32,000 nt of DNA, taken from Acaryochloris marina MBIC11017. GTDB lineage: Bacteria; Cyanobacteriota; Cyanobacteriia; Thermosynechococcales; Thermosynechococcaceae. The notes under the pieces are model-generated. The model did no database searches. It was not told the origin of the DNA and saw only the letters and a program-made list of their open reading frames with translations. The position numbers were made by a program, and so were the translations under genes. The stretch lies in contig NC_009925.1 in NCBI RefSeq assembly GCF_000018105.1, positions 2,610,001 to 2,642,000 on the forward strand, written 5' to 3'. The stretch's first letter is position 1; each line of letters begins with the position of its first letter. Positions 8,219-24,838 of the stretch are shown here, piece by piece.

Positions 8219-8429
8219 GTCTATCTCCTGCGAGTACATCAATGCGTTGACAGCAACCAGAAAAGGCTGCAAATTGACTGATAATGGGCAGCAGAAGCTT
8301 GTCCGCCCTCGGGCAGACTTCGCCGTCAACTTCCTTTCATTCAGCAATCTGTAGGGGTATACGCTAGGGGTTGGTGATTGGATCTGTTTCTCGAAAAATT
8401 TGTTGGAATCACGTGAGTTTAAATCGGGA

Positions 8430-8996
8430 ATGACTGTCCAAAACACCAGTGAGGACTTGGTTTTAATCCACCAAGTGGCTGAACAGAATCAAGCCGCACT
8501 ATCGATGTTGTATGACCGATATGCAGGCATCATTTATGCGATCGCATACAAAATGCTGGGGTCCGTCGAAGAAGCCGAAGAAGTGGTCTTGGATGTATTC
8601 GATCAAGTCTGGCGCACCGCCGCTAAATATGATCGCAGTCGCAGTCGAGTCGATTCTTGGCTATTTATGCAGGCCCGCAGCCGCACCTTAGATCGCCTTC
8701 GCAAACGGCAGCGCCAAGCCAAGGTCGTCGAAGCTTCTACGGTAAACGCGCCCATCGAGTCCGATACCAAAATGGCCCTGCCTGAAGAACATGCCCTGAT
8801 TCAAGAACGGCGCGATCTTGTCCAAGTCGCCATGGCCCAAATTCCACCGGAACAACAGCAGGTGATTGAGCTGGCCTATTTTCAAGGGTTATCCCAATCA
8901 GAAATTGCCAAGCAAACTGGCCTGTCCCTCGGCACCGTCAAAACCCGAATTCGGTTGGGTTTAAGTAAGTTGCGAGGCATTCTTGATCAATCTTGA
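8430..8996 (+). CDS. ECF-type RNA polymerase sigma-70 family factor
   Basis: Region 2 is LYDRYAGIIYAIAYKMLGSVEEAEEVVLDVFDQVW and region 4 HTH is LAYFQGLSQSEIAKQTGLSLGTVKTRIRLGLSKLR. The ATG is at 8430; the ORF-track start at 8400 is TTG. Confidence 0.88.
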   Translation: MTVQNTSEDLVLIHQVAEQNQAALSMLYDRYAGIIYAIAYKMLGSVEEAEEVVLDVFDQVWRTAAKYDRSRSRVDSWLFMQARSRTLDRLRKRQRQAKVVEASTVNAPIESDTKMALPEEHALIQERRDLVQVAMAQIPPEQQQVIELAYFQGLSQSEIAKQTGLSLGTVKTRIRLGLSKLRGILDQS

Positions 8997-9168
8997 GGAG
9001 TAAAAAAATGCGAGAAATCTGCCCATAGACAGATCCAAAGTCATTTTGAGGACGTAATACTGGTATAGGCTTTTTCATCAACTCATCTCAGCATAACCAG
9101 GGTCAGAGATCAGCCTGCTTCAGTCCTCCTATTCAACATCCCCATAACCCACAGGCTAAGATGTAGCT

Positions 9169-9774
9169 ATGAATCACTCAGCTCCACAACCCAATCCTGA
9201 AGAGCTTTCCAACTGGGCAGCCTTATCGGCGCTGGGTGCGTTGGCTGGGGACGATCAGCTAGCCGAGTCCTTTTCAGCGGATGAACTGGATGCAGAAATT
9301 GCTGGGTTTGAAGATGCGGTATCTGCGATCGCATACAGCGTTCCCGCCATGCCCATATCTCCCAAGCTGAAGGAGCGGCTGTTTCAACGGATTGACGCCA
9401 CCACTCTCCAATCTGCTGAGCTATACGCGCTCATCTCTCAGCCTATTGAGGAGTTAATTGCCCTATCCAATCAATTGCAATGGCAAGACATAGAAGGGCC
9501 AGGTGAGTTTAAGCATGCGGTCTACCAAACCAACACCCTACATCGAGAGCTGGCCTTTTTTGTCAAGTCTGACCAAGGGGGGCTTTTCCCCAAGCATCAT
9601 CACGCCGCTGGGGAAGAAATTTTGGTCTTGGCTGGCGATTTGGTGGTGGATGACCAGGTGTATCAGAAGGGAGATCGCATTGTGTCTGCGGCAGATACCA
9701 TTCATCAACCTGCCACCCGCAACGGTTGTCTCCTATTCTGCGTTGCCTCTATGGACAATCAGTTTGTGTCTTAG
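9169..9774 (+). CDS. Putative cytoplasmic anti-sigma factor with a C-terminal cupin (ChrR-like) domain
   Basis: It lies directly downstream of the ECF sigma gene. The N-terminus is anti-sigma-like (WAALSALGALAGDD...) and the C-terminus is cupin-like (HHHAAGEEILVLAGDLVVDDQVYQKGDRIV...IHQP). I saw no TM segment and no HxxxCxxC zinc motif. Confidence 0.6.
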   Translation: MNHSAPQPNPEELSNWAALSALGALAGDDQLAESFSADELDAEIAGFEDAVSAIAYSVPAMPISPKLKERLFQRIDATTLQSAELYALISQPIEELIALSNQLQWQDIEGPGEFKHAVYQTNTLHRELAFFVKSDQGGLFPKHHHAAGEEILVLAGDLVVDDQVYQKGDRIVSAADTIHQPATRNGCLLFCVASMDNQFVS

Positions 9775-9789
9775 ATGTCAAAGTAGACG

Positions 9790-10017
9790 TCAGTCTTTGA
9801 GGCCACAGATCATGTCATCTATGGATTGACTGCTTTGGGTATCCTCTGATTCGACCATCCCTGCATAGTTCATCCAAGGTTGTGAACCATCAACTGGCGG
9901 AACATTACGCAAAGAGCTTTTCCGAAGCTCTGCTAGGGAAATACCTAACCGTTCAGCTTCTTGCTTTGCAGCCTGATATTTTTCTTCAGATAAGCTACTC
10001 TGGATGCGAAGCACCAT
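9790..10017 (-). CDS. Ribbon-helix-helix (CopG/VapB-like) antitoxin; no toxin gene present
   Basis: The N-terminus MVLRIQSSLSEEKYQAAKQEAERLGISLAELRKSSL is RHH-like. The acidic C-terminal tail (PWMNYAGMVESEDTQSSQSIDDMICG) is typical of VapB-class antitoxins. The ATG at 10017 lies inside the attC-2 outer core, and the ORF ends 15 bp from the convergent anti-sigma gene. Confidence 0.55.
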   Translation of the reverse strand: MVLRIQSSLSEEKYQAAKQEAERLGISLAELRKSSLRNVPPVDGSQPWMNYAGMVESEDTQSSQSIDDMICGLKD

Positions 10018-10098
10018 AACGGTGGAGTTGTGCGGCGGCAAGCGACTGCTAAGTTTTATCAATCCCTTTATCCCGTCCGCACCAACGAAGTGTTAGCT
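10014..10098 (-). other. attC-like recombination site 2 (end of the R-M cassette)
   Basis: On the + strand the site reads CCATAACGG-N9-GCGGCGG ... CCGTCCGC-N9-GTGTTAGCT. Stem pairs are 10027-10030/10083-10086, 10031-10035/10077-10081 and 10036-10038/10073-10075, with C10082 and T10076 unpaired. It has the same skeleton and spacing as attC-1. Confidence 0.6.
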
Positions 10099-11270
10099 GT
10101 TTCATTTGACCGGGGAGATATAGCTTGGACTAAAGAGTTAGCTATTCGATAACCCAACTCTACAGGTACAGCATTACCGATCTGCCTCATTGCTTCTGTC
10201 CATGAGCCAGAAATCCTATAATTGTCTGGAAAGGTCTGGATTCTTTTAGCTTCAAACGTAGTGTAATAGCGTATTCGACCATCTTGATATCTAATCATAT
10301 TTTCTCCACCAGGAACTCCATGATCTCCTGCCTTAAGGGCTTTAGAGGGCATATCAATATAGCTACCAGTATGTCCAGGATAAGATCGCGCACCTTCTCT
10401 CAAGACATGTTCATTATCAAAACTACCTTGGATGTCAGGAGCTGGAAGTTTTCCAATTTGATCCCGAACTGTCTTCCAGGGTTCTAGAGAAGGAGAAAAT
10501 AAACTAGGCTGTTGCATGAGCTGCTTAGCTCGTTGTTGTGTTCTTTGGTCTAGATGTTCAATTTCTAAGGGATTGACCGCATTTCTTATCCAGTAAGCGC
10601 CAGTAATAAATTGTGACCACAATAGAGAATCTAAAGAATGAGATTCTTCAGGAAAAGACCACTCGATATTTAAATCTTCTCTAATTCCAACAATAAAAAC
10701 TCTTTCTCGGCGCTGAGGAACCCCATAATTTGCAGCGTCTACTAGCCGAAAAACAACATTATATTTGATGCCATCATACTTCCCTGAAGTGTGAATCTTC
10801 TCAAGCCTTGCAAGATGATCTTCCCAACGTTCTGAAGCTTGAAGAGAAAGGTCAGGATATCTCAACCTCAAGAGAATGTACTCAAAATAGCTACTGAAGG
10901 ACTTACGTAGCAACCCTTTGACATTCTCAAAGACAAAAGCTTTAGGTGTACAAACACTTATCGCTTTACAGGCGTAAGGGAACATATCTCGTTTATCCAT
11001 ATTCCCTTTATGTTTTCCTCCCATCGAAAATGGTTGACATGGAGGTCCACCAGAAACTATGTCAACATGACCAAATTGTGAAAATTTAAATGTACGAATA
11101 TCTACATTATGAACAAGCTGAGCACTGTAGTTATTAGCTAAAGTGATGCAAGCATCCTTGTTCCATTCAACAAAAGCCGTGTGCTGAACTCCAGCCTTTT
11201 CTAGACCTTTTGCCAGACCTCCAGCTCCTGTGAACAACTCTAAACAGGATAATTTAGGCATCTTCTTCAT
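10068..11270 (-). CDS. DNA (cytosine-5)-methyltransferase
   Basis: Motif I FTGAGGL, motif IV GGPPCQPFS, motif VI ENVKGL, motif VIII QRRERVFIVG, motif X GNAVP. It overlaps the upstream nuclease gene by 17 nt. Confidence 0.93.
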   Translation of the reverse strand: MKKMPKLSCLELFTGAGGLAKGLEKAGVQHTAFVEWNKDACITLANNYSAQLVHNVDIRTFKFSQFGHVDIVSGGPPCQPFSMGGKHKGNMDKRDMFPYACKAISVCTPKAFVFENVKGLLRKSFSSYFEYILLRLRYPDLSLQASERWEDHLARLEKIHTSGKYDGIKYNVVFRLVDAANYGVPQRRERVFIVGIREDLNIEWSFPEESHSLDSLLWSQFITGAYWIRNAVNPLEIEHLDQRTQQRAKQLMQQPSLFSPSLEPWKTVRDQIGKLPAPDIQGSFDNEHVLREGARSYPGHTGSYIDMPSKALKAGDHGVPGGENMIRYQDGRIRYYTTFEAKRIQTFPDNYRISGSWTEAMRQIGNAVPVELGYRIANSLVQAISPRSNETANTSLVRTG

Positions 11271-11943
11271 TCAATTCATTCATAAAAGCTTCAATGCTTT
11301 GCAAGAGATCTGCTTTATTAGCGTGAACTCCCTGACATTTTTCCGCCCAAAGGCGGCCTGGGTGGCAAACATCCCAGTCAGATTTTGCTTGCTCATATCG
11401 CCCTTTTCCAGGATCGTGGTTACCAAAACCATCAATTAAAGTATTCCAAAGTGGTTGATATTTCCTGATAAGAGCTGCTTCAACAGTTCCAATTAAGTCG
11501 CTTTCTTTACCCTCAAGAATCATGAATCTACAGAAAAAGTCGGAGCTGTTTACACCTTCTCCGATCTCTATACTGCGACTATGTTCTCTTATTCGATTAT
11601 TTAGCTCATAGCTTTTTGTATCTGAAGATGATGACTGTCTGGCTTGTCTCCAGCCTTTGGGGACTGCTTTTCCAACATAGATAGGAATATGAAATGCAGT
11701 CCTATTAACTGAATTAAATCTTGAATAAATTCCAGACTTAGCGATGCAATACAAGGCATAAACACCTGTGCCGTGAAAACGTGTGGGCACGGGAATTGAA
11801 TGCACAGGTGTACCGTTAAAAAAACGTATTGTGTCCTTGATTATTTCATCAAAATCCGGAGAAACGTAGACATGTTTAGAGCGGTCAAAACTATTCATAT
11901 GACTAAATTTAGACCGATAACCGTAAGCAAAGCAGCGCCACAT
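11254..11943 (-). CDS. GIY-YIG type II restriction endonuclease, Eco29kI-like
   Basis: GVYALY...IPIYVGKA (the GIY and YIG elements), NNRIREH (Arg/His), TVEAAL (Glu) and LWNTLIDGFGNHDPGKGR (Asn). The gene is translationally coupled to the C5-methyltransferase gene. An alternative start is the ATG at 11898. Confidence 0.72.
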   Translation of the reverse strand: MWRCFAYGYRSKFSHMNSFDRSKHVYVSPDFDEIIKDTIRFFNGTPVHSIPVPTRFHGTGVYALYCIAKSGIYSRFNSVNRTAFHIPIYVGKAVPKGWRQARQSSSSDTKSYELNNRIREHSRSIEIGEGVNSSDFFCRFMILEGKESDLIGTVEAALIRKYQPLWNTLIDGFGNHDPGKGRYEQAKSDWDVCHPGRLWAEKCQGVHANKADLLQSIEAFMNELNEEDA

Positions 11944-12030
11944 TATATTCGATTTTGCTGCCCTTATGTTTGAAGTGAAGCTAATTTGCTATCAGGAAGC
12001 ATTAAAGGGACAGCAGCAAAGCCCCTAGAC

Positions 12031-12116
12031 GGCTAACGGCACAACGTAGCGGCTGCAGATAACCTTGAACTCAGCACCAGTAGCCTTCTACCGTCCGCTG
12101 CCGTGATGTGTTAGGC
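12031..12116 (-). other. attC-like recombination site 1 (end of the PD-(D/E)xK cassette)
   Basis: On the + strand the site reads GGCTAACGG-N9-GCGGC ... CCGTCCGC-N9-GTGTTAGGC. The outer cores GGCTAAC/GTTAGGC pair at 6 of 7 positions. GCGG 12049-12052 pairs with CCGC 12095-12098 and T12094 is unpaired. The site starts 11 bp after the ORF stop. Confidence 0.65.
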
Positions 12117-12126
12117 GAGCTACAAA

Positions 12127-13101
12127 TCATCTCCGCTGCTTAGATAAAGTACGAGCGGCTTTAGAAGTAGCTTTCTTGATGTCAGTCATTAAAGTATCAA
12201 AGTTAGACGTTTGACAAATTACAAATTGAGTAAAATATTGGACAAGAGTAAAACGCCTTCCCTCTGATAATGACTTGCAAAGAAACGAAGGTAAATAAAA
12301 TCCGTATTCTCCGTTTTCTGCGCGGTACTTTTCAATATCATTGAATTCATCGAAATCAAGTTGCCCAAGCTTTGAGCACTCACGAGTACAGTGTCTTTCA
12401 AAATCAGGACCATAATCTGAATACAGGACTAAATAGGGAGTCGATTTTGCAATGTCAGTAAGGACAGTTGCATCCTCAACCATATTGGCTGTGAGTTTAT
12501 TATGTGCGACTAGAAGTTCAGCAGTAGTAAGGAGTATTGGGCACACGATAAAAGGAATACTATCTTCACGATGTCCGTATAAATTGAAAAGAGCTGCTTC
12601 AGAAATGAGTCGTGGGAGAGCATATTGGAGTTGTGAGATTCCATGTTTGATCTCAGCATCATACACACGACCATCTGATTCATCTACTTCTACTCCCTTG
12701 TAACAATGATGCGCGTTTTCATCAAACTCCACCGTTGCATTGGAGCGGAAGAATTTCTGGGAAAACCTATCGATAGTGCGAATGGTTCGACCAAGCACAA
12801 TTGGCGAAAAGTCAGCTCTGTTGGGATCTGGGCAGAATAACCATTTAACGTTTGGATTCCGTTGCTTACATTCTACCAACAGTTCAAGCTGGGCTGTTAT
12901 CTTATTGGGGTTGGAGAATGGTAAGAAAGCAGAGGCTTTCAAATCGACTGAAAAATCTTTGGCAATACCAGAATCATCACGAGCATAGGTGTAATCAGCA
13001 TCAATAGAAAAACCGTGCGAAACAAGAGACTTTGCCACTTCAAACTCCAAAGGAAGACTTGAGGAGACAAGTTTACTTTTCCATTTAGTAGAAATAGACA
13101 T
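12127..13101 (-). CDS. Uncharacterised protein with an N-terminal PD-(D/E)xK (Mrr-cat-like) nuclease motif
   Basis: The N-terminus is LPLEFEVAKSLVSHGF...DFSVDLKA...LELLVECKQ, which fits the E...D...E-x-K pattern. I do not recognise the C-terminal ~200 aa. Confidence 0.6.
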   Translation of the reverse strand: MSISTKWKSKLVSSSLPLEFEVAKSLVSHGFSIDADYTYARDDSGIAKDFSVDLKASAFLPFSNPNKITAQLELLVECKQRNPNVKWLFCPDPNRADFSPIVLGRTIRTIDRFSQKFFRSNATVEFDENAHHCYKGVEVDESDGRVYDAEIKHGISQLQYALPRLISEAALFNLYGHREDSIPFIVCPILLTTAELLVAHNKLTANMVEDATVLTDIAKSTPYLVLYSDYGPDFERHCTRECSKLGQLDFDEFNDIEKYRAENGEYGFYLPSFLCKSLSEGRRFTLVQYFTQFVICQTSNFDTLMTDIKKATSKAARTLSKQRR

Positions 13102-13382
13102 CCAGGATTAATAAATAGTATCAGCCACTATAACGCTGATCTTCGACGATTTCCGGGTACTGTTCCAGTTAAAGAGCGAAGCTGCCTAACTATGGTTATA
13201 CGACAGACTGACGTATAACTCTCCTATATAGAATATTAGATGCCAAGTGTCGTATAACAACCTTCCAACGGGAATTAAATGTCAAGTGTCGCCTAATACC
13301 ACTGATTTGGATAGTATTGCGACATATTATCGGATAAAACCCCTATTCTCACCCCTATTGAATCAAGCTTCCCATAACTGTA
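13102..13382. other. attI-like region between cassette 1 and intI
   Basis: GCCTAAC at 13184-13190 reads GTTAGGC on the cassette strand and lies 193 bp from the intI start. Short CGTATAAC-type repeats occur nearby: GGTTATACGAC around 13194-13204, GACGTATAAC around 13210-13220 and GTCGTATAAC around 13249-13258. Confidence 0.5.
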
Positions 13383-13789
13383 ATGTCTCCTGGTGTCCAG
13401 AAACAGCCTCCACGCCTGCTAGATCAAGTTCGTCAATCAGCCAGACTTAGGCATTTTAGTCACAAGACTGAAAAGTCATACATCTACTACATTCGATCAT
13501 TCATCCTGTTCCATCAGAAACGCCACCCTCGTGAAATGGGAGTTGACGAGATTCACGCCTATCTCTCTCACCTCGCCATCGATAAACAGGTAGCAGCCTC
13601 AACTCAAAATGTGGCATTGAGCGTTTTACTGTTTCTCTATCAGCACGTTCTGTCAATTTATTTACCTTACATTGACAAGATTGAGCGCGCTCGCAAGCCA
13701 GCACGGTTACCCACGGTCTTTTCACGCTCTGAAATCGCGGAGATTCTAGATAATATGAGTAGGGGCCACTTGTTGACGGCCAGCTTCTT
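13383..13789 (+). pseudogene. intI: Integron-integrase-type tyrosine recombinase gene; only the N-terminal ~135 codons remain
   Basis: LLDQVRQSARLRHFSHKTEKSYIYYIRSFILFHQKRHPREMGVDEIHAYLSHLAIDKQVAASTQNVALSVLLFLYQHVL...ARLPTVFSRSEIAEIL matches the conserved IntI N-terminal core-binding domain. Similarity ends at ...LLTASFL, and the catalytic domain is absent. Confidence 0.75.
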
Positions 13790-15152
13790 AAGCTTTGGCG
13801 TTCTCCTGTGTTGCATCCCTAGCTGTTGAGAGACGTTCTTGCGCTTCAGCCACCCATTGATTCACTTCTGGTTGCGTCTCCAGAACAATCGGATTTTGCT
13901 GGGCTTTAGTCAGACACTTCTTCCAATCGGGTAGTGCTTTCTGCTGCTCATTCTTCGCTTCAGACACTTTAGCCAGCATACAAAATGGATCAGGGGCATT
14001 CGGCTCCATCTGGGCTGCCTGCTGAAGATGGTGTTCAGCCTTCGAGAAAAACTTCTGCTTTAACCGTGCCCACCCTAAATTCTTAAGAAGGCTATATTTC
14101 AGTTGTTTACCCTCGGGTGTCTCTTTATTACCTTGTTGTTCTAGCTTCCGCAACCCTGCCTGCAATAGCGGAGCCGCTTTGCCATACTCTTCATCGACAA
14201 TATCCAGCTCAGCTAAATTGTTATGGGCCTGCAGCCAAATCATCAGATCATCGCAATGGTCAGCATTAGCAGCATTACAGTTCACAAGGTCTTTCTGAGT
14301 CACCACAAGCTGATACTGTGCCTTCGCTTTTTCAAGCTGCTGCAAATCTTCATGGACCAAGGCCAAATTGAAATGCGCCTTAGGAAAATCTTGCTTCAGG
14401 GCAATCGCCCGCTTAAAGTCTTTGCGAGCACTGTCTAACTTGCCATTCTGATAATGAGCTTCGCCATTCTGGTTAGCCGTTTCCGCAAATCCAGGCAATG
14501 CAGAATGGATACCAGCCAGAGATAAAACTAGGATCAGGGCGAAGGTAAAACTTGCCTCCTGCCAATAGCGCTTATTGATCCGTATCCGACAGAGAAGACG
14601 CTCATAGGCTTGTCGGCCAGCTTGAGTTAAGGCCCCTCCCCCCGCGAGCAAGGCCAATAGGCTTTGGCCGGAGATCATTAAGGTTGAACCCAAGTCGATA
14701 CCCCCCGAGAATAGGCGAGTAGCAGTATCAGTAATTAAACTGGCCGAGATGGTCAAAATAACCAGGGTTCCGGCATTAAACAGCCAATCATATTCGTTCC
14801 ACCAATGCCTAGGTTCTGGAGCCCTGAGAAACCACCACCAAGAAGTGTGGGGCGGATTAACCAACTGCTGCCAAGCCTCTAAATCAAGGTGAGTCGCAAT
14901 CAAGACTTCATATTTTTTGAGATAGCAATCTAAATCCGCTAGCCGCAATAACTGCTGAGAACTCAACAAGGATCGCTCCGTCATCAAGGCCTGGATTTGA
15001 TCACGACAGGTCAAAAGATTGAGAATTTCTTCTGGCTTAAATTTGCCCTTGGGGCGATCAAAGATTTGCAAGCTAACACGATACTGATTCAGCAGCTTGT
15101 TGAACTCAGGTGACTGAGCAGGCTCATCAACCGTCAAAGAATGGGTATGCAT
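13788..15152 (-). CDS. Membrane-anchored TPR-repeat protein
   Basis: An N-terminal soluble region is followed by about 3-4 TM helices (LVILTISASLI..., LMISGQSLLALLAGGGAL, FTFALILVLSLAGI) and then C-terminal TPR repeats. I chose the ATG at 15152; the ORF-track start at 15197 is TTG. Confidence 0.7.
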   Translation of the reverse strand: MHTHSLTVDEPAQSPEFNKLLNQYRVSLQIFDRPKGKFKPEEILNLLTCRDQIQALMTERSLLSSQQLLRLADLDCYLKKYEVLIATHLDLEAWQQLVNPPHTSWWWFLRAPEPRHWWNEYDWLFNAGTLVILTISASLITDTATRLFSGGIDLGSTLMISGQSLLALLAGGGALTQAGRQAYERLLCRIRINKRYWQEASFTFALILVLSLAGIHSALPGFAETANQNGEAHYQNGKLDSARKDFKRAIALKQDFPKAHFNLALVHEDLQQLEKAKAQYQLVVTQKDLVNCNAANADHCDDLMIWLQAHNNLAELDIVDEEYGKAAPLLQAGLRKLEQQGNKETPEGKQLKYSLLKNLGWARLKQKFFSKAEHHLQQAAQMEPNAPDPFCMLAKVSEAKNEQQKALPDWKKCLTKAQQNPIVLETQPEVNQWVAEAQERLSTARDATQENAKA

Positions 15153-15774
15153 CTTTACAAGCAGAATTGAATAACAGCAGTCAAGATTCAGGCGCAACCA
15201 ATTTATCTAGCAAAAGCTAAAAATTATGCCATCAGCTCTTGAGAGAAAGATTATTCTTATCATAAAAACAAATGAAAATATCTAAAGTGAGTCTGGTCAC
15301 CATCACTAATAGTTCTAAATAATTTATTAAAAACTATCAGACTAGTCACTAAAAGTTATGGGGTTTATTAGTGCTAGCTCTATTTTTTCAGTTAGGCTCA
15401 GCCGGTCAAAAAAGTAAAAATTCTTCGATTTCACCCATCAATTTATTGATATACAGATCTTTTAGCCTTCAGTGTATCTCAAATAGGAATAGAGATAGTT
15501 ACGGTGAGCGATCATCCTAAACATACTTTATTAGCTCTCGGCAAGAAAGACTTCAAGAGACATTATTGGATTTCTAGACAGTGAGCAATCTTAAGATTCT
15601 ATAAGAAAGGGAAGACTAAAAAATCTGAGTACAAAATAAACAAAATTAAAGAATGGCGTAAAAATGGCCATTTGAAATGATGTTAGATATTAGAAGCTTG
15701 AATGAATTAGACAGCTCAGTTTTAAAATAATCATCTTTTTTATTTCCCATTTGTGAAACCTGGAGATCTAGAAA

Positions 15775-16311: not shown

Positions 16312-18729
16312 ATGGATAGTCGTGATCCGCGCACTGAACATGTTGATGATGAATTTAAAAAACTAATTTCAAATATTGCCCGAGCCTTTGGACGTACCGC
16401 ACAAATTAAAGGACGGCGAGCGACCCACTCCTACGGCACCGTCGCCAAAGGGGTTTTGAAAGTTCTAGATACTCTAGATATCCCTCAACATCAAATATTT
16501 AGCGCAGGCAAACAATACCCGGTCTTACTACGCCACGCCAATATCAAAGGGTTCCGCGATGACGCCATCCTCGATGGGCGCGGTGCGACAGTCAGGGTCC
16601 TAGCGGGCGATGCCCAAGCGCCGCTATCGGATTTAAACCTAGATGAAGGCATTGTCGATATCCTGATGAGCACTGGACGCTCCTTTATTTTGGCAGAGGC
16701 GCTTTCCTTTGCTCGCTGGGCAGCAGGGCCCATGAAATCGCGAGCCGCCATGCTGCAGGAATTTCCCAAGATTGCACCCATCTTCCATGAAATTATTCGC
16801 GACCCAGACTCCTACACTCAACTCCACTACTATTCTGAGACAACCTACAGTTTTACTAGCCTCAATCAGCAGTCATTTTTTCTCCGATATCGCTTGGTTA
16901 ACCGCCAAAACCCATCTGCAGACACGGGATGGCTGAAGCCTGAAGAGGTGAAACTACCTTTAGATTACTTACCTCGCGTCGCCAGCGATACCCGTCCCGA
17001 GACCTATCTACAGGACGATTTTCGCCAACAGGTACGCAGTACAGGGGTCAGCTATCTACTGCAGATCCAACTGCAGCCCGTTTCTGATGATGCTGCAATG
17101 AATGAAACAGCCAAAGACTGCACGATTCCCTGGGAAGAAGAAGACCATCCGTTCCATGATGTTGCGGTGTTGGACTTGGGTAGCATTTTGCCCGATGAAC
17201 TCGCGGAAGCCTTGGAATTTAATCCCTATAATGCACCACCAGAATTGAGCTTAATTTTGGCGAAGACAGCGCGTGAAACAGCTTCTGTCAACCATCTTCG
17301 CTCTGTTGTCTATCAGATCTCTGCCAATATGCGTAAATATCAAACTCCTAGCTCCAGCCTAGTGGATTGGGGCAGCGGTCACCAGCCGTCCCTCCCTGAG
17401 CAATATCCTTATGGCACAGGCAAAACCCCGAGCTTCGATAATACAAAGCCCTTGCCCGCGAGAGTAAAGCCAAAACCACGCTACTGGGCCAACTTTGGCC
17501 TCAAACTGATTCCCAATCAACAGCTAGATCCTGATTTGCCTGAATTAGGTATTACAGGGGCCTTAGATCTGATGGGTACCAGTGTGGTTTCCTATATGCC
17601 GCCGAACCTAACCCGCACCCGATTGGATAAGTTTAGCGATGATTTCTTTGTAGAGCGCCGCCTGAATGGATTTAATCCAGGCAAACTCAACCGAGTGACG
17701 GGGCATGCCTGGCAATATCAGGTCTGCTACGATTGCAGCAAACACCAGGTGGAACCTGCGGGCATCCTTCCGACAAAAATTACAGCCCGGTTTAATTTCT
17801 GTGGACAATACTTGCATCCCCATTCCATTCAATTTACTCTGAACGGCCAAACAGAGACTCAGCAACCCGGTGATGAAAATTGGGAATGGAGTAAGCGCCT
17901 GTTCCGCTGCGCAGAATTCGTCTTCCAGGAGGCTCAATCTCATCTAGGACGAACCCACATGAACCTGGATCAGTACGCTATGGCGTATTACCGGAATGTG
18001 GTGAATAATCCCATTCGTTTACTGTTAGAACCCCATCTGGAAGGTCTCTTAAGTATCAATAAGCTAGGAGCCAACCTAATTAGTGGACCGACAGGCTTTA
18101 TTCCGGAAGCCTCCTCTCTAACACCAGAGAGCGTAGATGACGTTCTCAAAGATGAAATCAGTCACCTGAGTTATCATTGGACGCCCCATCGTCAAACCCT
18201 GCCCGATCGGGTACTGAACAACCATTATGATCCGGCTGCGATCGCAATGTGGAATCTCTTGACGCAGTATGTCAGGGAGTTCTTCGAAGACCATCAGGCA
18301 GGTATGGAGGAATACTGGTCTGAGATCCAAGCCATGTCCCACGATCTGGTCACTCACTCGATTCTCAAACCAGAATTAGGGACACTCGCCGTTCAAAACA
18401 ATGCTGACTTACAGCAGCTTTGTGTATACGTTATTTTCCTTAGCTCTTTCTTCCATTCATGGGTTAATAACAAGCAGTACGAAGACGGTGGCGATGTCAG
18501 CTATAGCACGATTGGCCTATGGGATACCCGCCATCCAAAGTATGATCCTCTACGCGTCGCTGAACGAGAAGCCAAACAGGTCACTCTCCTCTGGACACTT
18601 TCCCATGTCCGCTACAACCCCATTATGGATGTGGGACCAACAGCCCTTAAAAACTTACTTTGGCAACAGCGGCAGCACATTGAGCCAGGCATTCCCCTAG
18701 CCAATCTTATGATGAGCACCAATATCTAA
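16312..18729 (+). CDS. Fusion protein: catalase-related haem domain (allene-oxide-synthase-like) plus a PLAT-less lipoxygenase
   Basis: The N-terminal half carries RRATHSYGTVAKG, VLLRHANIKGFRDDAILDGRGATVRV and RSVVYQISANMR, which look like the catalase distal His, beta-barrel and proximal Tyr segments. The C-terminal half carries HLGRTH (H-x4-H), HSWVN (H-x3-N) and a C-terminal ...MSTNI ending in Ile, the lipoxygenase iron ligand. Confidence 0.85.
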   Translation: MDSRDPRTEHVDDEFKKLISNIARAFGRTAQIKGRRATHSYGTVAKGVLKVLDTLDIPQHQIFSAGKQYPVLLRHANIKGFRDDAILDGRGATVRVLAGDAQAPLSDLNLDEGIVDILMSTGRSFILAEALSFARWAAGPMKSRAAMLQEFPKIAPIFHEIIRDPDSYTQLHYYSETTYSFTSLNQQSFFLRYRLVNRQNPSADTGWLKPEEVKLPLDYLPRVASDTRPETYLQDDFRQQVRSTGVSYLLQIQLQPVSDDAAMNETAKDCTIPWEEEDHPFHDVAVLDLGSILPDELAEALEFNPYNAPPELSLILAKTARETASVNHLRSVVYQISANMRKYQTPSSSLVDWGSGHQPSLPEQYPYGTGKTPSFDNTKPLPARVKPKPRYWANFGLKLIPNQQLDPDLPELGITGALDLMGTSVVSYMPPNLTRTRLDKFSDDFFVERRLNGFNPGKLNRVTGHAWQYQVCYDCSKHQVEPAGILPTKITARFNFCGQYLHPHSIQFTLNGQTETQQPGDENWEWSKRLFRCAEFVFQEAQSHLGRTHMNLDQYAMAYYRNVVNNPIRLLLEPHLEGLLSINKLGANLISGPTGFIPEASSLTPESVDDVLKDEISHLSYHWTPHRQTLPDRVLNNHYDPAAIAMWNLLTQYVREFFEDHQAGMEEYWSEIQAMSHDLVTHSILKPELGTLAVQNNADLQQLCVYVIFLSSFFHSWVNNKQYEDGGDVSYSTIGLWDTRHPKYDPLRVAEREAKQVTLLWTLSHVRYNPIMDVGPTALKNLLWQQRQHIEPGIPLANLMMSTNI

Positions 18730-18937: not shown

Positions 18938-20329
18938 CCCTCTTTTATCACTTTAGACAGATAAAAAATAGACTATTCTCAGTTTCTATTTTTCTAATGA
19001 GTGATGTCAGCTTCAAGAAGTCCAGAACCAACCATTGGCTTTGTTGATGAGTACTGCCAACTATTTGCAGAGTTATTTCCCCAAGTCCGCAGTTATGAAG
19101 CCTTCAAGCATCTCCATCTGGGGATGATTAGTGATATCAAACGTAAATCATTGCCCGCCATTGCAAGAGCAGTGGGCTTGGAGAACCATCAAAGCCTGCA
19201 TCATTTTCTGAGTGAATCACCTTGGGTAGCGTCACATTTGTCTGACAAGAGATTGGACATCATCTTGAAAATACTGGATGGGCGCAGGTTAATTCTATTG
19301 ATCGATGAGACGGGCGATTGCAAAAAAGGCAAGAGTACCGACTATGTGAAACGGCAGTATATCGGCAATGTGGGCAAGAAAGAGAATGGCATCGTCGCAG
19401 TCACTGCCTACGGGCTGTTTCAAGGGATGATTTTGCCTTTGTCCTTTGAAGTGTACAAACCCCGAGAACGTCTTAAAGAGGAGGATGAGTATCTCAGCAA
19501 ACCCCAAATTGCTGCTGGAATGATCCGACAGTTGCAAGGGATGGGCTTTTGCTTTGAGCTCGTCCTGGCTGACAGCTTGTATGGGGAAGCTCAAACAAAC
19601 TTTGTGAATGTCTTAGAGGAGTTAAAGCTGCCCTATATCCTAGCGATTCGTAGCAATCATGCGGTGTGGTTACCCGCAGAACAAGCAGTCTTTGCCGAAC
19701 CGTGGCAGTCATTTGAACGAACCTTCAGCAATGGCACCACTGAAACTCGTTACAGGCAAGAGATCATTTATGGCCAGCGACACCACCAGAAGCGCTATTG
19801 GCTATTAACCACGGACCCCCAAACGCTACCAGAGAACTCAACCTCTTATGTCATGGCAGCGGCACCCGAGATCAAGCTGGATGAAATTGGGGATTGCTAT
19901 GGCTTCAGAACTTGGATTGAGTATGGTCTCAAACAGTCTAAAGATACCTTGGGTTGGGCTGATTTTCGCATGACGCACTACGAACAAATTGAAAAGTGGT
20001 GGGAGATAGTGATGAGCGCTTTCTTGATGGTGAGTTTGTTCGCTGATGTCTTCAATGACTCTTGTCCAGTGGCACATCAACACTTTGCGCAGCATCCTTG
20101 GTGGGATAACCAAAACGGGTGGAAGAATCTGCTCAATAATGTGCGCTTGATCATTCAACCGTTAATCAGTTGGAATCTTCTAAAGCGCTGGTTAGAAGTC
20201 TTTCCCAGCCGTGCTTTGAAAAAGGGGTTTGAGCAACTCACATCAAAGATGGAGGCATTTTGCTGTCCACTGGTGAGGAAATTGCTCAAGCATCCTGATT
20301 TTCTCTCTGTCTAAAGTGATAAAAGAGGG
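18938..20329 (+). mobile_element. IS701-family insertion sequence, copy A (about 1392 bp)
   Basis: The terminal inverted repeats are CCCTCTTTTATCACTTTAGACAG (18938-18960) and CTGTCTAAAGTGATAAAAGAGGG (20307-20329). TTAT lies directly outside both ends. Confidence 0.85.
19001..20314 (+). CDS. IS701-family DDE transposase (copy A)
   Basis: 437 aa. The candidate DDE residues are in LILLIDETGDCKKG, ELVLADSLYGE and RTWIEYGLKQSK. The protein is identical to the one at 21483-22796. Confidence 0.85.
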   Translation: MMSASRSPEPTIGFVDEYCQLFAELFPQVRSYEAFKHLHLGMISDIKRKSLPAIARAVGLENHQSLHHFLSESPWVASHLSDKRLDIILKILDGRRLILLIDETGDCKKGKSTDYVKRQYIGNVGKKENGIVAVTAYGLFQGMILPLSFEVYKPRERLKEEDEYLSKPQIAAGMIRQLQGMGFCFELVLADSLYGEAQTNFVNVLEELKLPYILAIRSNHAVWLPAEQAVFAEPWQSFERTFSNGTTETRYRQEIIYGQRHHQKRYWLLTTDPQTLPENSTSYVMAAAPEIKLDEIGDCYGFRTWIEYGLKQSKDTLGWADFRMTHYEQIEKWWEIVMSAFLMVSLFADVFNDSCPVAHQHFAQHPWWDNQNGWKNLLNNVRLIIQPLISWNLLKRWLEVFPSRALKKGFEQLTSKMEAFCCPLVRKLLKHPDFLSV

Positions 20330-21467: not shown

Positions 21468-22859
21468 CCCTCTTTTATCACTTTAGACAGAGAGAAAATC
21501 AGGATGCTTGAGCAATTTCCTCACCAGTGGACAGCAAAATGCCTCCATCTTTGATGTGAGTTGCTCAAACCCCTTTTTCAAAGCACGGCTGGGAAAGACT
21601 TCTAACCAGCGCTTTAGAAGATTCCAACTGATTAACGGTTGAATGATCAAGCGCACATTATTGAGCAGATTCTTCCACCCGTTTTGGTTATCCCACCAAG
21701 GATGCTGCGCAAAGTGTTGATGTGCCACTGGACAAGAGTCATTGAAGACATCAGCGAACAAACTCACCATCAAGAAAGCGCTCATCACTATCTCCCACCA
21801 CTTTTCAATTTGTTCGTAGTGCGTCATGCGAAAATCAGCCCAACCCAAGGTATCTTTAGACTGTTTGAGACCATACTCAATCCAAGTTCTGAAGCCATAG
21901 CAATCCCCAATTTCATCCAGCTTGATCTCGGGTGCCGCTGCCATGACATAAGAGGTTGAGTTCTCTGGTAGCGTTTGGGGGTCCGTGGTTAATAGCCAAT
22001 AGCGCTTCTGGTGGTGTCGCTGGCCATAAATGATCTCTTGCCTGTAACGAGTTTCAGTGGTGCCATTGCTGAAGGTTCGTTCAAATGACTGCCACGGTTC
22101 GGCAAAGACTGCTTGTTCTGCGGGTAACCACACCGCATGATTGCTACGAATCGCTAGGATATAGGGCAGCTTTAACTCCTCTAAGACATTCACAAAGTTT
22201 GTTTGAGCTTCCCCATACAAGCTGTCAGCCAGGACGAGCTCAAAGCAAAAGCCCATCCCTTGCAACTGTCGGATCATTCCAGCAGCAATTTGGGGTTTGC
22301 TGAGATACTCATCCTCCTCTTTAAGACGTTCTCGGGGTTTGTACACTTCAAAGGACAAAGGCAAAATCATCCCTTGAAACAGCCCGTAGGCAGTGACTGC
22401 GACGATGCCATTCTCTTTCTTGCCCACATTGCCGATATACTGCCGTTTCACATAGTCGGTACTCTTGCCTTTTTTGCAATCGCCCGTCTCATCGATCAAT
22501 AGAATTAACCTGCGCCCATCCAGTATTTTCAAGATGATGTCCAATCTCTTGTCAGACAAATGTGACGCTACCCAAGGTGATTCACTCAGAAAATGATGCA
22601 GGCTTTGATGGTTCTCCAAGCCCACTGCTCTTGCAATGGCGGGCAATGATTTACGTTTGATATCACTAATCATCCCCAGATGGAGATGCTTGAAGGCTTC
22701 ATAACTGCGGACTTGGGGAAATAACTCTGCAAATAGTTGGCAGTACTCATCAACAAAGCCAATGGTTGGTTCTGGACTTCTTGAAGCTGACATCACTCAT
22801 TAGAAAAATAGAAACTGAGAATAGTCTATTTTTTATCTGTCTAAAGTGATAAAAGAGGG
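21468..22859 (-). mobile_element. IS701-family insertion sequence, copy B (inverted relative to copy A)
   Basis: The terminal repeats are the same as in copy A (21468-21490 and 22837-22859). ATAA, the reverse complement of TTAT, lies directly outside both ends. Every internal ORF in every frame is identical to copy A. Confidence 0.85.
21483..22796 (-). CDS. IS701-family DDE transposase (copy B)
   Basis: The 437-aa product is identical to copy A. Confidence 0.85.
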   Translation of the reverse strand: MMSASRSPEPTIGFVDEYCQLFAELFPQVRSYEAFKHLHLGMISDIKRKSLPAIARAVGLENHQSLHHFLSESPWVASHLSDKRLDIILKILDGRRLILLIDETGDCKKGKSTDYVKRQYIGNVGKKENGIVAVTAYGLFQGMILPLSFEVYKPRERLKEEDEYLSKPQIAAGMIRQLQGMGFCFELVLADSLYGEAQTNFVNVLEELKLPYILAIRSNHAVWLPAEQAVFAEPWQSFERTFSNGTTETRYRQEIIYGQRHHQKRYWLLTTDPQTLPENSTSYVMAAAPEIKLDEIGDCYGFRTWIEYGLKQSKDTLGWADFRMTHYEQIEKWWEIVMSAFLMVSLFADVFNDSCPVAHQHFAQHPWWDNQNGWKNLLNNVRLIIQPLISWNLLKRWLEVFPSRALKKGFEQLTSKMEAFCCPLVRKLLKHPDFLSV

Positions 22860-23122: not shown

Positions 23123-24838
23123 TTAGATATTGATCCGCGATCTTAAATCTCGCAAATCATAACCAAGTGTTTTAAAGTTGTCACGCTCTCTCTTCAAGAT
23201 CGAAATAAACTCTCTAGGAATATCGTTTTCTTCATTCCTGGTTAAATATCCATGCTTGACATCGACCAAGATATTGACAATAAATAACTGAAATGCAGCA
23301 TCTTCAACAGAATAATCAATTGCTAGACGAGCATAATCAATTTCTCCACCATAGTTGGCTTGATTATCATTGCGCCAATCATGCCAAATCGTTGCATGAT
23401 AAATCGCATAAGCACAGGCTTGTTTGAGGTTCTCGATATCCTGTTCACCAGGATGAGTCATCGTTTCTGTGATTGGACTAATTGCCTTTTGATTCGCAGG
23501 TCTTTCGACGCTGACTTCATTATTATCAACATACTGTTCTCCATCTGTGATAGATGGAGGGACAAATGGAACGCTATGGTTTTCTAAATCTTTGGAGAAG
23601 TAATAAATTTCTTTCCAGTCTAATTTGATTTTGTCTTCATAAAGCGAAAAGAATTTATCAACGTATTCATTCAGAATATTCCAATATAGATTCTGAATTT
23701 TCGAATAGGAATGCTGGCCAGTAGAATTCACCTCACTTCTGGGCGACCAGTTCCTCCAATTACATTGGCCCAGATCATCTCTCATCACATCGATTAAAGA
23801 AGCTGAGTTGAGGGGGGAAAGTGCAAGGACTCCTTGATCTCCAAAGATAATATCTTTCCCAAACGTATTAATCGCAGAAACACTCTTTAAGTGGGGATGA
23901 AGAAGTTTAAGGATGGGACTTTTTTGAATATTCCGATAGAGGGCAATAGCATACTGCCCCACATTCAAATGCCCTCTGCCTAAATGTCCCTTAACCTGTC
24001 CATCAATAAACTCAGCAATGCGGAAATACAGCTTCGCTTGCTCCCACTTTGCCCCGTCTCCAGGCTCAGCCGAACCATCATCGACAAATTCAGGAGGGAA
24101 AGACGCAATTTTCCTTAGTTTCCATTCAATTTTTTGGGGAATCAACTGATCATTCCCATCTTTCACCATTGTTAAATGCACACTAGGTGCTTGATGAATT
24201 TCATCCCATCTATATTGATCTAAGTTGTAGCGAACATGAAATTGTCCATTGCTATCTTGGGTCATTAGCGCTGGTGCAAAACCATTTAAAGTTGCATCAA
24301 TAAAGAACTTATCATCTCTAGATGTACCGTTCTCGATGGTGAGGTTTTCTGGAAAAACAGTTTGCGCTGCTTCAATCGAACCCTGTTGTCCAGCATTCCG
24401 TCTTTTCAGCCCCCATGGGACTGATTTAAGCAGTATTTTACGAGTCTGTGATGCGACAAAATTCTGGGGAGAGGCAAAGATTCCTGCTCCTTCCGAACGT
24501 ATCAGTGGTACGGCATAATCGGGATCATATTCCCAGTCAGCGATCAAAATAGTGCCGAAATCATAGTCTCCTTCTACATTCCTAGGACCATCTTCCTCAT
24601 AAATCACATGAGGCTGACTTTGATAGTCCAATCGGATGACCTTAACGGTTAGATCGGGGGTATCACCAGCATCATCTGTATCATATTCAATGTTGAACTC
24701 GCCATTGTCGTTCGTTCTCCCTGAACCGACTAGGTCATCTAGCCCAAAATCTCGGTCCCAAATCTCAATTAATGTATCTCTAAAGGGCGATTGATCAAAT
24801 TGTCGAGAAATTTTGCCGGAAACCGTTTGCTTAACCAT
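23123..24838 (-). CDS. Lipoxygenase with a short N-terminal beta-sandwich-like domain
   Basis: HLGRGH (H-x4-H), HDWRN (H-x3-N) and a C-terminal ...RSRINI ending in Ile. It is a paralogue of the C-terminal half of the 805-aa fusion (GHLGRGHLNVGQYAIALYRNI versus SHLGRTHMNLDQYAMAYYRNV). Confidence 0.85.
   Translation of the reverse strand: MVKQTVSGKISRQFDQSPFRDTLIEIWDRDFGLDDLVGSGRTNDNGEFNIEYDTDDAGDTPDLTVKVIRLDYQSQPHVIYEEDGPRNVEGDYDFGTILIADWEYDPDYAVPLIRSEGAGIFASPQNFVASQTRKILLKSVPWGLKRRNAGQQGSIEAAQTVFPENLTIENGTSRDDKFFIDATLNGFAPALMTQDSNGQFHVRYNLDQYRWDEIHQAPSVHLTMVKDGNDQLIPQKIEWKLRKIASFPPEFVDDGSAEPGDGAKWEQAKLYFRIAEFIDGQVKGHLGRGHLNVGQYAIALYRNIQKSPILKLLHPHLKSVSAINTFGKDIIFGDQGVLALSPLNSASLIDVMRDDLGQCNWRNWSPRSEVNSTGQHSYSKIQNLYWNILNEYVDKFFSLYEDKIKLDWKEIYYFSKDLENHSVPFVPPSITDGEQYVDNNEVSVERPANQKAISPITETMTHPGEQDIENLKQACAYAIYHATIWHDWRNDNQANYGGEIDYARLAIDYSVEDAAFQLFIVNILVDVKHGYLTRNEENDIPREFISILKRERDNFKTLGYDLRDLRSRINI

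Follow-up and report, generated by a model that had tools for sequence, protein, structure and literature searches.

AM1_2585 of Acaryochloris marina: a predicted stand-alone PD-(D/E)xK nuclease in a single-gene integron cassette, with a candidate role in defense

Small defense systems, most of them of a single gene and including the nuclease fusions Epona, Divona, and Damona, are enriched among integron cassettes (10.1101/2024.07.02.601686; 10.1101/2024.07.02.601719), and the first position of the array switches such cassettes on (10.1101/2024.07.02.601686). Here, we analyze AM1_2585, a gene of the cyanobacterium Acaryochloris marina MBIC11017 that lies in a window of 32,000 nucleotides (nt) of contig NC_009925.1 (positions 2,610,001 to 2,642,000; all coordinates given below are positions within this window), and which an earlier note on this DNA had put forward as a cassette-borne candidate defense nuclease. 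Taking all lines of evidence together, we favor, at a probability of roughly 55%, the explanation that AM1_2585 is a stand-alone PD-(D/E)xK nuclease cassette whose product cleaves foreign DNA.

[quoted passage not shown] AM1_2585 shares with Divona the one-gene integron cassette and the (in our case predicted) N-terminal PD-(D/E)xK domain. When 71 members of the AM1_2585 family (65 plus a further 6) were scanned one by one, there was no match to PF14280 (DUF4365) or PF08847 (crr6) at E ≤ 10, and one Vibrio member bears the UniRef label “DUF4365 domain-containing protein”, which our Pfam scan does not reproduce. Furthermore, none of the 120 homologues listed carries a precomputed Pfam domain or has the large contig count expected of a pandemic V. 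cholerae gene, and no family match was found in Escherichia coli DNA. A distant relationship between the family and Divona, which we compared by description only, is possible and, if true, would make the family a branch of a validated defense system.

A functional precedent is provided by Brc142, a single-gene integron cassette encoding a “putative dimeric restriction endonuclease” (Kieffer et al., 10.1101/2024.07.02.601719; Science 388:eads0915) that shields E. coli, Klebsiella, and Pseudomonas from several phages (10.1101/2024.07.02.601719). Compared likewise by description only, Brc142 resembles AM1_2585 in that its cassette has no methylase and encodes a putative restriction-type nuclease that stands alone; the AM1_2585 family differs in having no full-length tblastn match among 72,556 plasmid records, where a remote relative from Leptospira stands alone. 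The type IV enzymes (Mrr, MspJI, PvuRts1I) are PD-(D/E)xK nucleases that likewise stand alone and have no cognate methyltransferase, and the nuclease domain of MspJI is the second-best match to the AM1_2585 fold in the PDB; unlike these enzymes, however, AM1_2585 has neither a match to Mrr_cat nor a detectable SRA, winged-helix, or modified-base reading domain.

The gene itself is situated as follows:

12127–13101, minus strand: AM1_2585 open reading frame (ORF), member of an unnamed family of ~325-residue stand-alone PD-(D/E)xK-like proteins

This ORF, proposed in the earlier note and borne out here as real, encodes a protein of 324 amino acids (WP_041659709.1; 36.9 kDa, pI 6.0). The two database records disagree about its start, with GenBank (ABW27593.1) beginning at a GTG codon (V22, giving 303 amino acids) and RefSeq at the ATG at 13101. 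Starting from the GTG drops 21 conserved residues (window positions 13039–13101, minus strand), including E19, the putative catalytic glutamate of helix 1. Since W7, K8, S14, P17, and E19 are conserved at 90–97% in an alignment of 237 homologues (from which all conservation figures below are taken), and since the short form would lose E19, we consider the 324-residue form to be the correct one.

The evidence for a nuclease active site comes from a set of conserved positions, the codons of which are:

13045–13047, minus strand: E19, glutamate of helix 1, 97% conserved, aligned with E12 of the Holliday-junction resolvase Hjc
12943–12945, minus strand: D53, aspartate of strand 2, 98% conserved, aligned with D42 of Hjc
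12865–12873, minus strand: E77-C78-K79, (D/E)xK of strand 3, aligned with E55-M-K57 of Hjc
12631–12633, minus strand: Q157, 94% conserved, in a QLQYALP motif of the long helix 149–175

The motifs LPLEFEV, DFSVDLKA, and LELLVECKQ, on which the earlier note based its assignment, are indeed present, while the residue numbers attached to them (E20, D49, E75, and K77) are wrong, the corresponding residues in the numbering of the ORF being E19/E21, D49/D53, E77, and K79. Of the alternatives at the first two positions, E19 and D53 are the conserved ones, as both E21 and D49 fall below 85%. E77 is kept in 95% of the sequences, C78 in 100%, and K79 in 91% (with a further 5% having arginine), such that the proposed catalytic residues are preserved among homologues at 91–98%. 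R81, K135, E138, Q157, T192, and H237 are conserved at 89–99%, and Q157 is a candidate for a fourth active-site residue. We also considered an iron-sulfur or zinc site, as C78, C133, C187, and C296 seemed conserved in an initial set of 65 sequences; this was ruled out by the set of 237 sequences, in which C78 alone is invariant, C296 is kept in 89% (with V, T, or S as substitutes), and C133 and C187 each fall below 85%.

An AlphaFold2 model built from 65 sequences yields one compact body, with a predicted local distance difference test score (pLDDT) of 95.5 and a predicted template modeling score (pTM) of 0.93. The order of its elements (helix 16–28; strands 32–43, 46–60, and 70–79; and, further along, helix 149–175 and strand 184–192) matches that of the PD-(D/E)xK core. 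Based on the strand boundaries of 46–60 and 70–79, and if the two arms of the hairpin are equal, D53 would face E77 across this hairpin in the model. Foldseek searches with the model gave no significant match, with best E-values of 0.2 against the PDB and 0.04 against a viral library. The top 50 PDB matches nevertheless include AF1548, MspJI, NotI, Cas4 (SSO0001, and chain 8d3l_I of the I-C Cas4), and Hjc, together with Exo5, an R2 endonuclease domain, a phage exonuclease, and SduA, and the top 50 viral matches include exonucleases, Holliday-junction resolvases, endonuclease I, DUF1064 proteins, and annotated PD-(D/E)XK nucleases. Both lists are thus dominated by PD-(D/E)xK nucleases, each individual match being weak.

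In place of HHpred, we used hhalign to compare the family with a 15-sequence Hjc profile seeded with Sulfolobus solfataricus Hjc, which is identical to PDB entry 1HH1. This gave a probability of 40% (P = 3e-4), with E19/R41/D53/E77/K79 placed on E12/R28/D42/E55/K57 of Hjc; against the lone Hjc sequence, the alignment is unchanged and is not significant. In addition, the remote homologue from Leptospira, which is discussed below, has Hjc as its best Pfam match, over the corresponding segment and below threshold (E = 0.065, 13.6 bits against a cutoff of 21.1). As no library recognizes the protein and the individual scores are weak, the fold assignment rests on several weak, concordant signals taken together with the motif. 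The model order, the conservation across 237 sequences, the Foldseek lists, and the hhalign comparison with Hjc all point in the direction taken by the earlier note, and we consider it very probable that AM1_2585 carries a PD-(D/E)xK nuclease core. The likeness to Mrr suggested at the same time is not supported, as Mrr_cat (PF04471) has no match at E ≤ 10 in the 71 members and the sole link obtained at the profile level is to Hjc; by the tests available, the core lies closer to Hjc than to Mrr_cat.

The conservation also bears on whether such a core is used for cutting DNA. Some proteins with PD-(D/E)xK folds are RNases or bind without catalysis, and all of the fold and profile matches obtained here are individually weak, so that one may imagine a PD-(D/E)xK-like core that serves in RNA cleavage or in nucleic-acid binding without catalysis. 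However, the near-constancy of all four canonical catalytic positions across many phyla is hard to explain without catalysis, and we regard this alternative as very unlikely. We infer instead that the protein is a nuclease and that its substrate is DNA.

The link to Hjc (PF01870; PDB 1HH1) brings with it a further alternative, namely that AM1_2585 is an accessory repair or recombination nuclease, a structure-specific resolvase or flap endonuclease akin to Hjc, RecU, or Cas4 that acts on branched or damaged DNA. It shares with Hjc the helix-strand-strand-strand core with catalytic residues in register, its only link at the profile level is to Hjc, and Hjc, Cas4, and Exo5 are all among its fold matches; some copies of the gene also sit between housekeeping genes. 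At 324 residues, however, AM1_2585 is over double the length of Hjc (~140 residues), with ~57 residues inserted after strand 3 and, at the C-terminus, a region of ~130 residues that is unrelated to Hjc and has no relative, and the Hjc hidden Markov model (HMM) itself has no match in the 71 members. Moreover, Hjc is an archaeal housekeeping protein, whereas AM1_2585 is bacterial, horizontally mobile, and cassette-borne. The family lacks synteny with repair genes and is extremely patchy in its distribution (18 loci from 185,579 species genomes, with two peptide patterns used for the search), and its members from different phyla and domains are 40–55% identical; both this pattern and the cassette carriage speak against a repair function, which we consider unlikely.

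The remainder of the protein is dominated by the C-terminal region:

12127–12516, minus strand: residues 196–324, a mostly helical alpha/beta region without a structural relative in the PDB

Modeled alone, these residues reach a pLDDT of 92.4, and a Foldseek search of the region against the PDB returned nothing (best E-value 2.6, with template modeling scores below 0.25). Neither an SRA nor a winged-helix nor any other modification-reading domain was detectable in it by HMM and fold searches. The earlier note had thought of a nuclease head with an unknown sensor or specificity tail attached to it, and a separable tail of this kind does not agree with what we find: the model is a single compact body; the strongly conserved R81, K135, E138, Q157, T192, and H237 lie outside of the supposed head; and head or tail never occurs alone among the 150 profile matches listed. 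The compact body and the lack of head-only or tail-only matches therefore indicate that a head plus a swappable tail is not the right picture and that the protein is one fixed unit, in which the parts outside of the core presumably confer specificity.

As a single sequence, AM1_2585 has no match in Pfam, NCBIfam, PADLOC 2.0, the PHROGs HMMs, or the PDB sequences, and the Pfam scan of the 71 members was likewise without a match, in agreement with its earlier description as uncharacterized. Querying the PDB sequences with AM1_2585 alone, with the family profile, or with a profile of the C-terminal region brought up nothing above noise (HflX at E = 3.3, TIPE2 at E = 0.57). The family is nonetheless sizable, with 144 word-indexed relatives and, in a profile search over 1.84 billion representatives, 840 matches at E ≤ 1e-3, 386 of them at E ≤ 1e-30. 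Among the 150 profile matches listed, almost all are 310–345 residues long, all align as a single stretch, and most cover nearly the whole profile, the shorter ones being truncated proteins. Hosts include cyanobacteria, Vibrio, Frateuria, Caballeronia, Marinobacter, Paenibacillus, Cohnella, Cytophagales, Anaerolineales, Verrucomicrobiia, Blastocatellia, Omnitrophota, Myxococcaceae, and Methanoregula, and span at least eight bacterial phyla as well as methanogenic archaea. One cluster from Vibrio (P0069) is at least 90% identical across at least ten species (V. parahaemolyticus, V. vulnificus, V. cholerae, V. harveyi, V. owensii, V. coralliilyticus, V. chagasii, V. lentus, V. cyclitrophicus, and V. 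metoecus), which indicates recent cassette exchange.

A tblastn search at E ≤ 1e-3 found no match to the family among 50,697 phage and 72,556 plasmid records, nor was a copy found in IMG/VR viral contigs. At E ≤ 1, the plasmids yield a single, remote relative, a 288-residue protein on plasmid p7 of Leptospira interrogans (NZ_CP043899.1; locus L074, 3998–4864), which hhalign relates to the family at 98.5% and which differs at its C-terminal end. It adjoins a gene for an FRG-domain protein, with an Rpn-family nuclease ~2 kb away, and a search starting from it brought up no bridging relatives.

The integron setting of AM1_2585 comprises the following elements:

13184–13190, minus strand: recombination core GTTAGGC on the attI side, ~83 nt upstream of the ATG
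13235–13257 and 13274–13296 (span 13235–13296), no strand assigned: two 23-nt direct repeats, between the core and intI
13383–13829, plus strand: intI remnant, of which the N-terminal SAM-like domain alone survives
12025–12125, minus strand: attC of cassette 1, with R'' (GCCTAAC) at 12110–12116 and R' (GTTAGCC) at 12031–12037

The R'' box starts 10 nt past the AM1_2585 stop codon, and the R' box lies 72 nt beyond R''. Single-sequence folding of either strand gave a hairpin energy no better than that of shuffled sequence, and the attC was established instead by comparison with other attC sites. Its arms are nearly identical to those of an element that follows a 67%-identical homologue on a cyanobacterial contig (L027), while the loops differ; in a set of five elements of this kind, R''/R' and L''/L' stems are common to all, with 5 of the pairs showing compensatory changes. 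From these five elements we built a covariance model, and a scan of 603 kb of related loci with it yielded 52 matches, 52 of 52 on the strand of the family gene, with the attC of cassette 1 as the second-best match. Cassette 1 contains neither a second ORF nor a methyltransferase, and its single-gene nature, the core upstream, and the attC downstream are all as the earlier note had described them. With an oriented attC downstream, an attI core adjacent, a divergent (if truncated) intI, and recurrence of the family in unrelated arrays, AM1_2585 is almost certainly an integron gene cassette. The G+C content of the array (41%) can be compared with that of its flanks (47–52%), and the two direct repeats may be integrase-binding repeats of attI.

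While the integron anatomy drawn up earlier is correct, one point has to be added to it, which is that the integrase is dead. The divergent remnant of 148 amino acids matches positions 1–125 of the 315 positions of TIGR02249, and it ends where the opposite-strand gene for a TPR protein (13788–15197, minus strand) ends. The reduction of the integrase to an N-terminal remnant means that the integron of A. marina is probably inactive and decayed, and that its own cassettes are no longer shuffled. We also scanned for promoters and found no sigma-70-like site upstream of AM1_2585, a scan that is uninformative for a cyanobacterium.

Cassette carriage recurs well beyond A. marina. At least 10 loci, that of A. 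marina included, have an attC within 50 nt of the family gene, in the others either downstream (L027, L033, L030, L031, L032, and L046) or upstream (L007, L018, L046, and L069), and capture into cassette arrays is seen in Vibrio, cyanobacteria, Acidobacteria, and other Proteobacteria. One copy from V. parahaemolyticus (L001; DAHSIS010000020.1) lies within a part of a superintegron that has 15 repeats over 11 kb, and a metagenome-assembled genome of Blastocatellia (L018, 1–20928; CAVSDJ010000007.1) has 25 attC matches in 21 kb, all on one strand, with the family gene split by a frameshift and adjoined by an IS481 transposase. The copies outside of cassettes stand as lone genes in small variable islets, some of which also carry toxin-antitoxin genes (BrnT, ParE/Phd, VapB, HicAB, or PIN) or Uma2 genes, and some homologues are found in defense islets. 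The homologues are therefore placed in cassette arrays, toxin-antitoxin islets, and defense islets rather than in housekeeping operons, with a few standing alone between housekeeping genes.

Among the ORF clusters of 66 loci, none co-occurs with the family gene, and there is thus no conserved partner; an antisense ORF that appeared “conserved” was rejected as an artifact of its overlap with the family gene. As nothing co-occurs, we take the gene to be truly stand-alone. This sets it apart from type II restriction-modification systems, with no methyltransferase in the cassette and no conserved neighbor, and from toxin-antitoxin modules, with no room for an antitoxin in the cassette and, again, no conserved neighbor.

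The same surroundings raise the alternative that the gene is selfish or addictive, a toxin-like or orphan restriction endonuclease that is self-protected by an unlinked host methylase or by low expression and that stabilizes the array or islet in which it resides. Type II restriction endonucleases look like compact PD-(D/E)xK proteins of ~320 residues without recognizable relatives, and AM1_2585 resembles them in each of these respects; the family is also frequently co-located with BrnT, ParE/Phd, VapB, HicAB, and PIN genes and with transposases, and frameshifted copies occur (L017 and L018). However, no antitoxin-sized ORF would fit in the cassette, as ~83 nt upstream and 10 nt downstream are all that is available, and the 66 loci offer no methyltransferase or other conserved neighbor in its place. 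Furthermore, a type II enzyme acting without protection would kill its host, whereas the family is intact and its catalytic residues are kept in nearly all members. We therefore judge a selfish nuclease to be improbable.

Our preferred explanation can then be set out as follows. AM1_2585 would be a metal-dependent PD-(D/E)xK endonuclease that works alone and belongs to a so far unnamed family, and its predicted active site would be formed by E19 of helix 1, D53 of strand 2, E77-x-K79 of strand 3, and probably Q157 of the following helix. The C-terminal region of ~130 residues, packed with the core in one globule, would supply the substrate specificity. The gene would travel as a promoterless single-gene cassette and, in the first position, would be read from the cassette promoter of the integron. 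Its most likely role would be to cut incoming foreign DNA, as a one-protein, restriction-like defense with no need of a methylase, following the model of type IV enzymes and nuclease BRiCs. Cyanobacterial DNA is commonly heavily methylated, and the presence of family members in several cyanobacteria therefore argues against a broad 5-methylcytosine (m5C) or N6-methyladenine (m6A) target. The evidence for a role in defense is circumstantial, drawn from guilt by association, and we see the odds for such a role as evenly balanced. More tentatively, and with a probability somewhat below even, AM1_2585 may be the first member of an undescribed one-protein anti-phage or anti-plasmid system, in which an Hjc-like nuclease is combined with a structurally new specificity region, which is spread by cassettes, and which relies on a self-sparing principle not yet seen in restriction enzymes.

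Several observations weigh against this explanation and should be kept in view. No sequence library recognizes the AM1_2585 protein, the best Foldseek E-values are those of 0.2 (PDB) and 0.04 (viral library) given above, and the hhalign probability for Hjc is just 40%. No modification-reading or sensor domain by which the enzyme might spare self DNA is recognizable. Several homologues are lone insertions between housekeeping genes with no defense gene nearby, and the co-location with neighboring genes was read without a formal background. Finally, with a truncated integrase and no promoter-like site upstream, expression of AM1_2585 in A. marina is unproven.

The cassette that follows AM1_2585, and which the earlier note had read as a restriction-modification cassette, is confirmed as one of the Eco29kI type:

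10003–11943, minus strand: cassette 2, with an Eco29kI-family restriction endonuclease, a C5 methyltransferase, and its own attC
11254–11943, minus strand: Eco29kI-family restriction endonuclease (PF09517, 4e-72)
10068–11270, minus strand: C5 cytosine methyltransferase of cassette 2
10003–10107, minus strand: attC of cassette 2, from the covariance model and comparison

The two ORFs of this cassette overlap by 17 nt (11254–11270), and the R'' box of its attC falls within the last codons of the methyltransferase gene. Directly past the second attC is an ORF of 90 amino acids (9790–10062, minus strand) without a Pfam match, which contains EAERLGISLAELRKSSL, resembling a ribbon-helix-helix antitoxin, and which is possibly a degenerate third cassette; an attC beyond the second one was not found. 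At the far edge of the array, ~230 nt past the second attC, lies a pair of genes, one for an ECF sigma factor and one for a ChrR-type cupin anti-sigma factor (8400–9774, plus strand), in which the G+C content climbs from the 41% of the array to 50–52%.

On the other side of the integron, the window holds two DDE_5 transposase genes of 437 amino acids each, apparently identical and inverted, ~1.2 kb apart (19001–20314, plus strand, and 21483–22796, minus strand). An ORF of 805 amino acids (16312–18729, plus strand) has weak catalase-like and lipoxygenase matches, and one of 571 amino acids (23123–24838, minus strand) a weak lipoxygenase match; together, these two call to mind the fusion proteins of catalase-related and lipoxygenase parts that have been reported from Acaryochloris.

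Chromosomal integrons have recently been shown to store compact defense genes, and most of their cassettes are still unassigned. The family of AM1_2585 offers an easy, self-contained test case among these, with ~840 clusters, a fixed length, a confident model, clear residues to mutate, and no partner gene to be supplied. If the protein were found not to protect, the family would be one more orphan PD-(D/E)xK family; if it does protect, it would provide both a new family for defense-finding tools and a new DNA-recognition region for the nuclease toolbox.

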